Shown here: in pieces, positions 18,001 through 24,000 of the stretch
Layout of the letters: every line of letters begins with the position of its first letter
Position numbering within the stretch: position 1 is the stretch's first letter
Assembly: GCF_044647545.1 (NCBI RefSeq)
Contig: NZ_CP172818.1
Length of the DNA: 64,000 bases
Strand: one strand, 5' to 3'
Origin: Escherichia coli
GTDB lineage: Bacteria > Pseudomonadota > Gammaproteobacteria > Enterobacterales > Enterobacteriaceae
Position numbers: made by a program

Positions 18001-21000
18001 CCGGGTCGAGCATCCCCACCATTTCCAGACCACTGATGCGCGGCATCTGGATATCGAGAAACAGCACATCCGGGCGCAGTTTATGCACCGCGCCGATCCC
18101 TTCTACGGCGTTTGAACACTCTCCAACGATTTCAATATCGCTCTGCTCCTGCAAAAATACGCGCAGGTTCTCCCGTGCTAACGGTTCATCATCGACAATT
18201 AAGACTTTAATCATGCCTCGTCCCTCCATGGTAGTCGTAACGTTATTCGGGTGTAACTATCAGGCTCACAGGCGACGCTTATCCCATAGTCATCGCCAAA
18301 CCGTTCACGTAAACGCTTATCCACCAGATTCATCCCCAGCCCACTGGCATTGGTTACCGGTTGATACAAACCGGCATTGTCTTCGATCTCCAGCATCAAA
18401 TGTTGCCCCTCACGTCGGGCGCTGATTGCCACTCGCCCTGTATCCAGCAGTTGTGATGTCCCATGTTTAATGGCGTTTTCCACTATCGGTTGCAGGGTAA
18501 ACGCGGGCAATTGCTGCTGGGATAATTCTTGCGGAATAGCAATGTTGACCTGCAACCGCGACTGGAAGCGCGCCTTTTCAATTTGCAGATAAGCGTTCAC
18601 ATGTTCAATTTCGTCGGCGAGAGTAACAAACTCCGAAGGCCGCTTTAAGTTTTTGCGGAAAAAAGTGGAAAGATACTGCACCAGCTGGCTGGCCTGTTCG
18701 CTGTCGCGGCGGATCACCGCTTTAATGGTGTTAAGCGCATTAAACAAAAAATGGGGATTCACCTGGGCGTGAAGCAGTTTGATCTCTGACTGGGTGAGCA
18801 TCGCTTTTTGCCGCTCATATTGCCCGGCGAGGATCTGCGCCGAAAGCAGTTGCGCAATCCCCTCGCCCAGCGTGCGGTTGATTGAACTGAATAAACGGTT
18901 TTTGGCTTCATACAATTTGATGGTACCCATCACTCGCTGATTTTCACCACGCAACGGAATGACCAGCGTCGACCCCAGTTTGCATTGCGGATGCAAAGAG
19001 CAACGGTAAGGCACTTCGTTGCCATCAGCGTAGACCACTTCACCGGTTTCAATCGCTTTTAAGGTATAAGTTGAAGAAATCGGTTTGCCGGGTAAATGGT
19101 GGTCGTCACCAATTCCGGTAAAGGCCAGCAATTTCTCTCGATCGGTAATCGCGACTGCACCAATATCCAGCTCCTGATACAGCACCTGTGCCACTTTCAT
19201 GCTGTTCTCTTCGTTAAACCCCTGGCGCAAAATGCCTTCCGTCGAGGCCGCCACTTTCAGCGCAGTGGCAGAAAAAGCCGAAGTGTATTTTTCAAACATC
19301 GCGCGTTTATCGAGCAATATACGCATAAACAGTGCCGCGCCGACGGTATTGGTGACCATCATTGGCGCAGCAATATTACTCACCAGACGCACCGCATCTT
19401 CATAAGGTCGGGCGATCGCCAGGATGATCAACATTTGCACCATTTCAGCGACGAACGTGACGGCACCGGCGGTAATGGGGTTAAAGACTTTATCAGTGCG
19501 CCCGCGACGGATCAGGATGCTGTGTACCAGGCCGCCGAGCAATCCTTCAACGATGGTCGAGATCATGCAACTTAGCGCGGTCATGCCCCCCATCGAATAT
19601 CGATGTAACCCGCCGGTCAGACCAACCAGCCCACCGACGACCGGACCGCCGAGTAAGCCGCCCATTACCGCGCCTATCGCACGGGTATTGGCAATAGAAT
19701 CGTCAATGTGCAACCCAAACCAGGTGCCCATGATGCAGAAGATGGAAAAGACGATGTAGCAGAGAAATTTATGCGGCAGACGAACCGTGACCTGCATTAG
19801 CGGTATGAATAATGGCGTTTTACTCATTAACCACGCAATGACTAAAAAAACGCACATCTGCTGAAGCAGCAGCAACACCAGATTAAAATCGTACATACCC
19901 GCAAACCACACTTCCCTTTAAAACGCGTAACATACATTGCTTGCGTTTAACTTTCTTTGAACTCTTGCAGAAAAATGAGAATTCGTGAGTACGATCACTC
20001 AAAATCGCCTGGCAAAAATAAAATCACCCTATAGATGCACAAAAAACGGGCAAAACTACCTGGTTCGCAAAACTGCGTCTAAAGTTAAACCGGGACCTCG
20101 CGAGCAAGGGTGAGACGATGGCGCTTTACACAATTGGTGAAGTGGCGTTGCTTTGTGATATTAACCCTGTCACGTTACGCGCGTGGCAGAGGCGTTACGG
20201 ATTGCTGAAACCGCAACGGACAGACGGCGGTCATCGGCTGTTCAATGATGCCGATATTGACCGTATCCGCGAGATCAAACGCTGGATCGACAACGGCGTG
20301 CAGGTCAGCAAAGTTAAAATGCTGCTCAGTAATGAAAATGTTGATGTGCAGAACGGCTGGCGCGATCAGCAAGAAACATTACTGACTTACCTGCAAAGCG
20401 GCAATCTGCATAGCCTGCGAACGTGGATCAAAGAGCGCGGTCAGGATTACCCCGCCCAGACACTCACCACGCACCTGTTTATTCCTCTGCGCCGACGACT
20501 TCAGTGCCAACAACCGACTCTCCAGGCGCTGCTGGCGATTCTCGACGGCGTACTGATCAACTACATCGCCATTTGCCTGGCTTCGGCACGTAAAAAACAG
20601 GGTAAAGATGCGCTGGTGGTTGGCTGGAATATTCACGATACCACCCGTCTGTGGCTGGAGGGCTGGATTGCCAGTCAACAAGGATGGCGCATTGATGTCC
20701 TCGCCCACTCGCTCAATCAACTACGCCCTGAACTGTTCGAAGGCCGTACATTGCTGGTGTGGTGCGGTGAAAATCGAACCTCTGCCCAACAGCAGCAACT
20801 CACCAGTTGGCAGGAACAAGGCCATGATATTTTCCCACTCGGCATTTAATGATTCGTTAACAAATGCGCTTTACTGTACAATCCTTTCGTTAACATAAGG
20901 AGTGCATTATGCGCATAGCTAAAATTGGGGTCATCGCCCTGTTCCTGTTTATGGCGTTAGGTGGAATTGGTGGCGTCATGCTCGCAGGTTATACCTTTAT

Positions 21001-24000
21001 TTTGCGTGCTGGCTAAGTGCCTGCACCAGCCTTTCAAACAGGCGGTCTGCGATGATCGCCGCCAGTGCCACCAGTAACGCCCCCTGGATCACATACGCGG
21101 TATTAAATCCGCTAAGCCCGATGATGATCGGCGTACCCAGCGTGCTGGCCCCTACCGTTGAGGCGATCGTCGCCGTACCAATGTTGATAATCACCGAAGT
21201 TCGCACGCCCGCCAGAATCACCGGAGCCGCCAGCGGTAGCTCGACCTTACGCAGTCGCTGACCACGACTCATTCCCATACCTTTCGCAACTTCTGTCACG
21301 CTGGCATCAATCGCTCCCAGCCCGGCAAGTGTCGCCTGCAGGACGGGCAGCACGCCGTAAAGGATCAAGGCGATAATCGCGGGTTGCAGACCAAAGCCGA
21401 TCACCGGAACGGCAATCGCCAGCACTGCAACGGGCGGAAAAGTCTGCCCAACGGCGGCAATAGTTTCCACCAGTGGGCGAAATTCCGCGCCCCACGGGCG
21501 AGTGACCGCAATTCCGGCACCAGTACCAATGATCACCGCAAACAAACTCGAAATTCCCACCAGCCAGAAATGAGCCAGTGCCAGAGCTGCAAAACTCTCT
21601 TGCTGATAAACGGGTCGTGGCAGTTGTGGGAACAAGGCAGCAAACAGCGGCTGGCTGTAAGGTAGCCAGAAAATCAGCACCACAAACAGAGCAATCAGCC
21701 AGAACAGCGGATCGCGCAACATCTTCATACGCTTACGCCTCCTCCAGCAGATCCTGAAAATGCAGCGTGCCGCAAGGCTGGCCCTGCGTGTTCACCACCG
21801 GCAGCACCTCGCATCCCCGCGCGACAAACAGAGAAAGCGCATCGCGTAGCGTCATCTCTTCTGCCAGTGCCTCACCTTCTGCCCGTTCTTCGCGACGCAC
21901 GTAATCCGCCACACTACGTAACGAAAGCAGGCGCACACCCAGTTCACTACGTCCAAAAAACTGGCGGACAAAATCATTCACCGGACGAGTCAGCATCGTC
22001 AGCGGATTACCCTGCTGCACCACTTCACCGTGATCCATCAATACAAGATGTTCTGCCAGCCGTAGCGCCTCATCAATATCATGAGTGACCAGCACAATAG
22101 TACGCCCCAGCAAACGGTGAATGCGCGTCATCTCTTGTTGCAACGCACCGCGCGTTACCGGGTCCAGTGCGCCAAAAGGTTCATCCATCAGTAAGACTTG
22201 CGGATCGGCAGCCAGTGCGCGCGCCACTCCCACACGTTGCTGCTGACCACCGGAAAGCTGATGCGGATAACGCTCACGTAAATTTGACTCCAGCCCCAGT
22301 AGCGCCATTAATTCGTCGATACGATCGTCAATCCTCGCCCGCGACCATTTTTGTAATTGCGGCACGGTAGCGATGTTTTGCGCCACGCTCCAGTGGGGGA
22401 ACAGGCCAATAGATTGAATGGCATAGCCCATCCGGCGGCGCAACTCCAGTACTGGCAGCGAGCGAATTTCTTCTCCGGCAAAGCGGATCACGCCGCTGTC
22501 ATGCTCCACCAGGCGGTTAATCATTTTCAGGGTGGTGGATTTGCCGGAGCCAGATGTGCCAATCAGCACCGAAAAACTCCCTTCCTGAAAATTGAGATTG
22601 AGATCGTTAACGGCTTTTTGTGCGCCGAACAGTTTGCTGACATGGCTAAATTCAATCATTACGTTTCACCTTCAGCAGTGCGATAAGCAAATCGAACAGC
22701 GCGTCGGTAAGCACCGCCAGAACAATTACCGGGATCACCCCCAGCAACACTAAATCAATGGCACTGCTTAGCAGCCCCTGGAAAACCAGCGCACCAAAAC
22801 CGCCTGCACCGATTAACGCCGCAATCACCGCCATACCTACAGTTTGCACCATCACCACCCGCAGGCTGCGCAGAAATACCGGTAACGCCAGCGGTAACTG
22901 AACATGCAGGAATCGCTGCGCCCCGCTCATCCCCATCGCTCTGGCGCTCTCCAGCACATCGCGCGGGATCTGGTTCAAGCCGACTACCACGCCGCGCACC
23001 AGCGGCAGCAAGGCATAGAGCACCAGCGCAATCAGTGCGGGTGTCATTCCGGTTCCTGCTATGCCCAGCTTACCCAGCCACGGAAAGGCCGTAACCAGCG
23101 CGGCAAGCGGCGCAATCAACAGGCCAAAGAGCGCCACCGAAGGCACGGTCTGAATGACATTGAGTAGCGAAAAAATCGCCCCCTGCCGCGCAGTGGAAAA
23201 GTAGCACCAGACGCCCAGCGGCACACCAATCACTAACGCAGGCAGCACCGCACCAAACAGCAACGTCAGATGTTGTGCCAGCGCGTCATCAAACACATCC
23301 TGACGGTTGGCGTATTCTTTCATTAGCGAGAGATCGTTAAGCGCGCCGGAATACAGCAACCACAGCGGAATGATGGCAATCTGCATATGCAACAACCAGC
23401 GCCACAGCGGATGCGTGGAGATTCGTCGGATGGCATCGCTACAGGCAAGCAATGCCAGCGCCGCAGCCAGCCAGAAACCACTGCCGAGGCTGGTACGCGC
23501 CAGCGCACTGCCATTTTGCGCCAGTTGGGTCGCCGCTTTTCCCGCTCCCCACACCAGCAATACGAAGACGAGTTGCGCCAGGATGAGTGCAAAAATGCTG
23601 CCTTTTTTAGCGGGAATAAAACAGGCTGTCAGCCAGGCGCAACATACGCCCACCAGCATCCAGATCGTTTGCGGCCACAGCTGCCAGAGATGACGCCCCT
23701 CACCCGAAACTAAACGATTAGGCGCGTAACTGATAAACGGCAGCGCCGCTGCGATTGCCGTCAGCAACAGCAGCAGCGCCAGAACAGGATTAATACGTAG
23801 ATAAGTCACGGGAAATTACTTCGTCCACCCTTTTTGTTTCAGGTAGTCGGCAGCCACTTTTTTGGCATCCAGTCCTTCAACTGCAATGCTGGCATTCAGT
23901 TGCTGCAATGTTTTTTCATCGAGGCTGGCGAAGACTGGCTGTAGCCACTGTGCCATTTGCGGATACTCCTTCAACACCGATTCACGAACCACTGGTGCAG

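Follow-up and report, generated by a model that had tools for sequence, protein, structure and literature searches.

The small membrane-protein gene yohO and its convergent overlap with yehW in Escherichia coli and related Enterobacterales

A stretch of 64,000 nucleotides (nt) from the chromosome of Escherichia coli (NCBI RefSeq assembly GCF_044647545.1, contig NZ_CP172818.1), here called the window, was analyzed around a short open reading frame (ORF) of 35 codons. This feature is the known gene yohO, a part of the E. coli chromosome. Its product, the 35-residue protein YohO, is translated and detectable in cells, and the gene is clearly under protein-coding selection. yohO converges on yehW, the last gene of the osmF-yehYXW operon, and the coding sequences (CDSs) of the two genes overlap at their 3' ends.

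The yohO locus in the window

The junction between yohO and yehW includes the following features.

20909..21016, plus strand: yohO CDS, 35 codons from ATG to TAA (UPF0387 / PF27791 / NF010225; RefSeq WP_001216963.1).
20897..20902, plus strand: Shine-Dalgarno sequence AAGGAG, read directly, 6 nt upstream of the yohO ATG.
20997..21728, minus strand: yehW, an ORF of 243 codons encoding a permease, last gene of the osmF-yehYXW glycine betaine ATP-binding cassette (ABC) transporter operon (RefSeq; Pfam BPD_transp_1 on its orthologues).
20997..21016, both strands: doubly coding overlap of exactly 20 nt, with yohO codons 30-35 and the stop codon on the plus strand (FILRAG, stop) and the final yehW codons and stop codon on the minus strand (..SQHAK, stop).

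In the window sequence, yohO starts with the ATG at 20909 and ends with the TAA at 21014-21016. The surrounding 2 kb contain 34 ORFs of at least 20 amino acids (aa), so the length of 35 codons is not significant by itself and the reality of the gene rests on other evidence. Four results raise yohO above chance: the identity of its product to YOHO_ECOLI, the match to the family model NF010225, the distribution of substitutions against Salmonella over codon positions, and a frame test. The encoded protein is an exact match in the public protein collection to the UniProt entry YOHO_ECOLI (UPF0387 membrane protein YohO). The NCBIfam equivalog NF010225 ("protein YohO") matches with 80.1 bits against a cut-off of 57 (e-value 8.8e-23), and residues 1-35 align to positions 1-35 of the 35 profile positions. 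In Salmonella and in more distant species, the YohO orthologues are assigned to the Pfam family PF27791 (UPF0387_membrane). A sub-threshold Pfam match of YohO to B12D (e-value 0.36) was rejected as a chance match; the Pfam copy that was scanned predates PF27791.

A stretch of 601 nt around yohO was found in 5423 of the 5426 complete E. coli genomes, with mlrA, yohO and yehW as the annotated features. The best-matching RefSeq record carries yohO (WP_001216963.1) and yehW with an identical overlap of 20 nt. The window gene lies between mlrA and yehW, and it shows no difference from the K-12 gene (YOHO_ECOLI; NF010225/PRK13681; PF27791) in sequence, length, neighbours or overlap.

The selection on the protein is seen in the substitutions. 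Between the window and Salmonella, the yohO sequences differ at 20 nt, 17 of which are third codon positions. Fourteen of the changed codons are synonymous, and three carry conservative replacements (F14L, L17I, and T29S). The frame test was performed with 110 unique homologous DNA sequences, and only with the codons that the search pattern described below leaves unfixed. The proportion of synonymous codons among the differing codons was 31% in the yohO frame versus 9% and 5% in the two shifted frames.

Published data agree with an expressed protein. Native YohO (35 aa) was detected by top-down mass spectrometry in a proteomics paper of 2025 (PMC12529367). Ribosome profiling (Ribo-seq) coverage of yohO is reported in a preprint, which credits the membrane binding of the protein to Hemm 2008 (bioRxiv 10.1101/2020.05.05.079178).

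The predicted product is a single hydrophobic helix. The mean Kyte-Doolittle hydropathy across residues 6-32 is 2.17, and AlphaFold2, run with an alignment of 36 sequences, predicts one helix at residues 3-34 with a mean predicted local distance difference test score (pLDDT) of 86.8. Basic residues border the helix, Arg2 and Lys5 on one side and Arg33 on the other. YohO is thus probably a single-pass helix of the inner membrane.

The original prediction had described a small ORF with a good ribosome-binding site (RBS), one hydrophobic helix, and an overlap of the last ~20 nt with the end of the convergent yehW. Each of these points is borne out by the data above, as is the proposal of a real small membrane-protein gene. 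It had also named conservation of the ORF in related genomes as a check; the ORF is found across Enterobacterales, in addition to the published translation and mass spectrometry signals. The presentation of the gene as a discovery does not stand, because RefSeq, UniProt, NCBIfam, Pfam, and the literature on small proteins and excludons already cover yohO, the membrane protein it encodes, and the overlap with yehW. What is new here is the comparative picture: an overlap with a fixed register, an osmF operon that was gained or lost between yohO and bglX, and a conserved promoter with a candidate operator.

Conservation of yohO and of the overlap in Enterobacterales

Two further genes of the locus are needed for the comparison among species.

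20118..20849, plus strand: mlrA, the co-directional upstream neighbour, which ends 59 nt before yohO.
25006..27375, minus strand: bglX, for which the coordinates are those of the ORF taken from the first ATG (annotated CDS, 2298 nt); it is the convergent neighbour of yohO in species without osmF-yehYXW.

The gene order in E. coli is mlrA and yohO on the plus strand, followed by yehW, yehX, yehY, osmF and bglX on the minus strand. The genes of the osmF operon are tightly packed; yehW starts 4 nt past the yehX stop codon (21725-21733), and yehX shares 8 nt with yehY (22652-22659), both an ordinary geometry for translational coupling.

An exhaustive phmmer search over 1.84 billion representative proteins returned only 17 matches, each a variant or a mis-called form of YohO, with the core GGI(G/S)GVMLAGY in common. 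A census was performed at the DNA level with a degenerate pattern for this core (codons 18-28 fixed) in species-representative genomes and yielded 113 stretches. This count is a lower bound, and nothing follows from a species being absent from it. Within Enterobacteriaceae, yohO was found from Escherichia, Salmonella, Citrobacter, Kosakonia, Buttiauxella, Cedecea, Trabulsiella, Mangrovibacter, Siccibacter, Franconibacter, Atlantibacter, Yokenella, Pluralibacter, Shimwellia, Phytobacter and others. Beyond this family, it was found from Erwinia and from Dickeya, Brenneria, Lonsdalea and Sodalis in Pectobacteriaceae. yohO belongs to the core genes of E. coli and of many Enterobacterales and is inherited vertically.

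A full-length yohO ORF is kept in 117 of 120 loci. In the remaining three, L048 (Citrobacter amalonaticus AUH_CA_2023_1), L070 (Enterobacter sp. EA-1) and L107, the ORF is broken near its 5' end but otherwise intact, as is the overlap with yehW. The breaks in L048 and L070 look like frameshifts. Such loci represent either assembly errors or recent pseudogenisation.

A YehW homologue converges on yohO and overlaps it in ~97 of 120 Enterobacterales loci (phmmer e-values down to 1e-146). In Salmonella enterica, the layout is the same as in the window: mlrA is followed after 59 nt by yohO, which shares 20 nt with yehW. Among the loci, the overlap measures 17, 20, 23 or 26 nt where YohO has 34, 35, 36 or 37 aa, respectively. 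This correspondence means that the yehW stop codon always falls at yohO codons 30-31, and only the length of the C-terminal tail of YohO varies. The C-termini of YehW are variable (RHAK, RHVK, HRHAQ, RRER and others), and those of YohO are more uniform (FILRAG, FIVRGGVG). The upstream gene in the yehW-linked loci is mlrA in 74 cases and another gene in 13, including btsS, metG, an HTH_5 regulator gene and a TonB-dependent receptor gene.

Two loci of different geometry were observed. In L064 (Sodalis sp. dw_96), yohO and the gene for a YehW homologue lie 10 nt apart, a naturally occurring pair without overlap. In L078 (Trabulsiella odontotermitis strain 01), the YehW-like ORF is shorter and ends 135 nt away; it is possibly disrupted.

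In 22 loci, yohO is found without yehW. The operon is missing at the yohO locus in Dickeya, Brenneria, Lonsdalea, Erwinia, and some Cedecea or Klebsiella-like genomes, and the yohO sequence is conserved there. A convergent beta-glucosidase gene of glycoside hydrolase family 3 (GH3) lies downstream in 15 of the 22, and its product is 62-84% identical to that of bglX in the window (70-84% for matches longer than 180 aa). The gap between yohO and this bglX ranges from 50 to ~800 nt (~100-130 nt for a bglX directly next to yohO), and none of the 15 has an overlap with bglX. Examples in which bglX is convergent with yohO, with no osmF-yehYXW between them, are L015, L023, L032, L044, L065, L071, L074 and L090. 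By gene order, the species without yehW have the same locus minus the osmF-yehYXW operon. The operon appears to have been gained or lost between yohO and bglX across Enterobacterales, by insertion or by deletion. Since yohO is kept in these loci, the protein YohO needs neither yehW nor the overlap. The existence of the same locus without the operon also explains the adjacency of yohO and yehW by synteny.

Promoter of yohO and overlapping transcription

The region between mlrA and yohO includes several putative regulatory elements.

20877..20882, plus strand: predicted -10 box TACAAT of yohO, which ends 26 nt ahead of the ATG, with a predicted leader of ~20 nt.
20846..20860, no strand assigned: palindrome TTAATG-att-CGTTAA (TTAATGattCGTTAA), at the -35 position of the predicted promoter; it includes the mlrA stop codon.
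20853..20862, plus strand: direct repeat TTCGTTAACA, copy 1, from a repeat search that gave two exact copies with a start-to-start distance of 33 nt.
20886..20895, plus strand: direct repeat TTCGTTAACA, copy 2, in the leader directly ahead of the Shine-Dalgarno sequence.

The expression signals are conserved as well. In 105 of the 110 unique homologous loci, AGGAG, GGAG or AGGA occupies the place of the Shine-Dalgarno sequence. Irrespective of the upstream gene, 109 of these loci have a hexamer that matches TATAAT at five or six of six positions, and in 101 of them its end lies 25-28 nt from the ATG. The hexamer is TATAAT in 73 loci, TACAAT (the E. coli form) in 19, TATACT (the Salmonella form) in 14, and TAGAAT in three. 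This conservation suggests that yohO has a dedicated promoter and a leader of ~20 nt.

The two exact 10-nt copies of TTCGTTAACA flank the -10 box, and an element [GA]TTAAC lies between the -10 box and the Shine-Dalgarno sequence in 53 of the 110 unique loci. The palindrome is lineage-specific: TTAATG-N3-CATTAA was recognized with at least 10 of 12 positions in 69 of 88 yehW-linked loci, some of which have no mlrA upstream, versus two of 22 loci without yehW. The palindrome and the repeats look like operator elements for a factor and may constitute a candidate operator. GTTAA repeats spaced by multiples of 11 bp bring ArcA boxes to mind. The literature search found no paper linking yohO with ArcA.

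The yohO mRNA of Shigella flexneri is ~8-fold lower under anaerobic than under aerobic conditions (log2 fold change -2.96), and no fnr effect is listed for it (PMC4229854). For yehW, an in vitro genomic SELEX (systematic evolution of ligands by exponential enrichment) study of the RpoE holoenzyme reports an intragenic peak (type D, intensity 4.0) at K-12 map position 2214150, which corresponds to about 21000-21700 in the window, between yohO and yehX (PMC5493296).

Terminator scans revealed no intrinsic terminator near the yohO/yehW junction on either strand, and when the two 3' regions were folded as RNA, their stability did not exceed that of shuffled sequences (z = -1.17 and +0.80). An Rfam scan of positions 20000-22000 gave nothing credible. 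Two candidates were rejected: a terminator-like hairpin within yohO (20926-20941) and a promoter-like site on the minus strand (20934-20906), each of which is no commoner than in shuffled sequences. Given the CDS overlap and no intrinsic terminator at the junction, the complete yohO and yehW mRNAs must share a complementary stretch of 20 nt or longer, probably longer. Such overlapping transcription agrees with a documented call. ExcludonFinder (2025) lists yohO-yehW as one of 165 convergent excludons in E. coli MG1655, for which a call in 50% or more of 58 RNA-seq samples was required (PMC12288877); the call is defined solely by the coverage overlap of RNA-seq-defined transcripts. The pair belongs to the convergent excludons in this sense, as opposite-strand neighbours with overlapping transcripts. 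The functional outcome that defines an excludon, in which transcriptional interference or processing by RNase III makes the expression of the two genes mutually exclusive, is hypothetical for yohO-yehW. The pair also differs from the general excludon in that its overlap lies in the CDSs, is only 20 nt long, and reaches only the last gene of a four-gene operon.

The original prediction went on to propose antisense interference between yohO and osmF-yehYXW. The overlapping transcripts stand, through the published call and the terminator-free junction; an effect of one gene on the other does not follow from the published data, in which neither gene's expression is shown to change that of the other, and interference of yohO with yehW is plausible. 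A stronger version would make this the main role of the locus. The yohO unit would chiefly interfere with the end of osmF-yehYXW, or be silenced by the operon, through colliding RNA polymerases or through RNase III, which would cleave the RNA duplex formed by the two 3' ends, and the two units would take mutually exclusive states. The CDS overlap, the lack of a terminator, the excludon call, the fixed register of the overlap in many genera, and the near-consensus -10 box directed towards yehW would all fit this explanation. The excludon call, however, scores coverage and says nothing of reciprocal expression or RNase III dependence. The overlap covers only the last six codons of the last gene, so that at most yehW would be affected. 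The clear selection on YohO at the protein level, the retention of the gene with the same type of promoter in the 22 loci without yehW, its gapped position opposite bglX in 15 of them, and the non-overlapping pair of Sodalis are all unexpected if interference were the reason for the gene. The fixed register does not discriminate, because each stop codon lies within the CDS of the other gene and a frozen accident would also yield it. This explanation is considered unlikely.

A broader possibility combines the overlap, the near-consensus promoter and the lineage-specific palindrome into one selected device. Oxygen-responsive transcription of yohO would tune the 3' end of the osmF-yehYXW mRNA, or the operon would silence YohO, and YohO might also act on the transporter. 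This possibility, too, is unlikely.

Function of YohO

The YohO helix has a glycine-rich core, G18-G19-I-G/S21-G22-V-M-L-A/V26-G27-Y28, which is nearly invariant. It includes the small-xxx-small pattern G18xxxG22xxxA26 and more glycines. Helix faces made of small residues serve the tight packing of transmembrane helices. The residues G18, G22 and A26 would give YohO a slim face for close helix-helix packing, and it is likely that YohO binds itself or a larger membrane protein, which it would modulate or stabilise as other bacterial small membrane proteins do.

The closest parallels are AcrZ with AcrB, KdpF with KdpABC, CydX with CydAB, MgtS with MgtA, and MgrB with PhoQ. YohO resembles these small proteins in size (~30-50 aa), in its single hydrophobic helix, in having its own RBS, and in its conservation across Enterobacterales. 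It has no sequence similarity to them and no match in the PDB. Unlike kdpF and cydX, yohO is not co-transcribed with a candidate partner.

yohO is therefore best explained as an independently transcribed gene for a small protein, a single-pass membrane helix which packs on itself or on a larger membrane protein. We assign this explanation a probability of about 0.9. The overlap with yehW is old, has been stable at the locus and leads to overlapping transcription, and any regulatory effect of this transcription would be a secondary by-product, not the reason for the gene. Such an effect is held to be secondary because YohO is equally conserved where the neighbour is bglX and the overlap is missing.

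Several points weigh against this explanation. The near invariance of residues 18-28 in the 113-locus census is partly circular, as the search pattern fixed those codons, and the independent support for the core consists of the phmmer matches, which are few. No PDB chain matched the profile of the YohO family in a profile search of the PDB, which leaves a YohO complex without structural support, and the literature searched gave no function, partner or phenotype for YohO. The helix-packing mechanism itself is proposed from the sequence and by analogy with characterised small proteins. The membrane localisation goes back, through a secondary citation, to Hemm et al. 2008. As for independent transcription, the strict consensus promoter scan made no promoter call for yohO, with no -35 match 16-18 nt upstream of the hexamer, and the promoter is placed by conservation rather than by a mapped transcription start.

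A more specific proposal makes YohO an accessory or regulatory subunit of the neighbouring transporter OsmF-YehYXW, comparable to KdpF in KdpABC or AcrZ with AcrB, which would bind the permease YehW or YehY through its glycine-rich helix. The adjacency to yehW is tight and wide (~97 of 120 loci) while the upstream neighbour varies, the single helix carries small-xxx-small motifs, and many characterised bacterial small membrane proteins bind transporters. The two genes are, however, convergent and not co-transcribed, and they do not strictly co-occur, as the 22 loci without yehW indicate. A conserved yohO persists in the genera that have no operon at the locus, simple synteny of yohO, the osmF operon and bglX accounts for the adjacency, and no complex in the PDB contains a YohO-like chain. 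A dedicated transporter subunit is thus improbable.

YohO could also be imagined as a type I toxin-like hydrophobic peptide, restrained by the 3' end of the yehW mRNA acting as an antisense RNA. It shares with Hok, Ldr, Ibs, TisB and ShoB a small hydrophobic product, here a single helix, and an antisense RNA over part of the gene, which for yohO is its 3' end. The mRNAs of type I toxins typically have a long structured 5' untranslated region. The predicted yohO leader, in contrast, is short (~20 nt) and unstructured, and its Shine-Dalgarno sequence is strong and exposed. yohO has no dedicated antitoxin small RNA; neither such an RNA nor an Rfam family was recognized in 20000-22000, where the sole antisense transcript is the 3' end of the yehW mRNA, and this covers the 3' end of yohO rather than its translation start. 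yohO belongs to the core genome as a single copy (5423 of 5426 genomes) and is inherited vertically with its locus, and the native protein was detected in ordinary cultures during normal growth (PMC12529367). A clone of yohO from the ASKA collection, induced with isopropyl beta-D-thiogalactopyranoside (IPTG), grew enough to be picked; it passed the first round only of a growth-based screen for Ala-Ala resistance, which is uninformative on function (PMC10299036). Its recovery shows that overexpression is tolerated, an indirect hint against toxicity. With neither an antisense small RNA antitoxin nor a long structured leader, yohO was rejected as a member of the type I toxin-antitoxin class, and a toxin-like role is very improbable.

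That yohO is a chance frame, conserved only through the constrained sequence of yehW nearby, draws on the abundance of short ORFs in the region and is refuted by the frame-specific synonymous substitution, the curated model NF010225, the published detection by Ribo-seq (bioRxiv 10.1101/2020.05.05.079178) and mass spectrometry (PMC12529367), the conservation in loci without yehW, and the fact that only 20 of its 108 nt overlap yehW.

YohO is one among many validated small proteins of E. coli without a function, and the remaining value of the finding is modest. The comparative facts, namely the promoter with its candidate operator, the glycine-rich core, and the gain or loss of the operon, could guide experiments. 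The overlapping and non-overlapping loci of Enterobacterales provide a clean natural contrast for the regulatory consequence of 3' overlaps at the level of the CDS.

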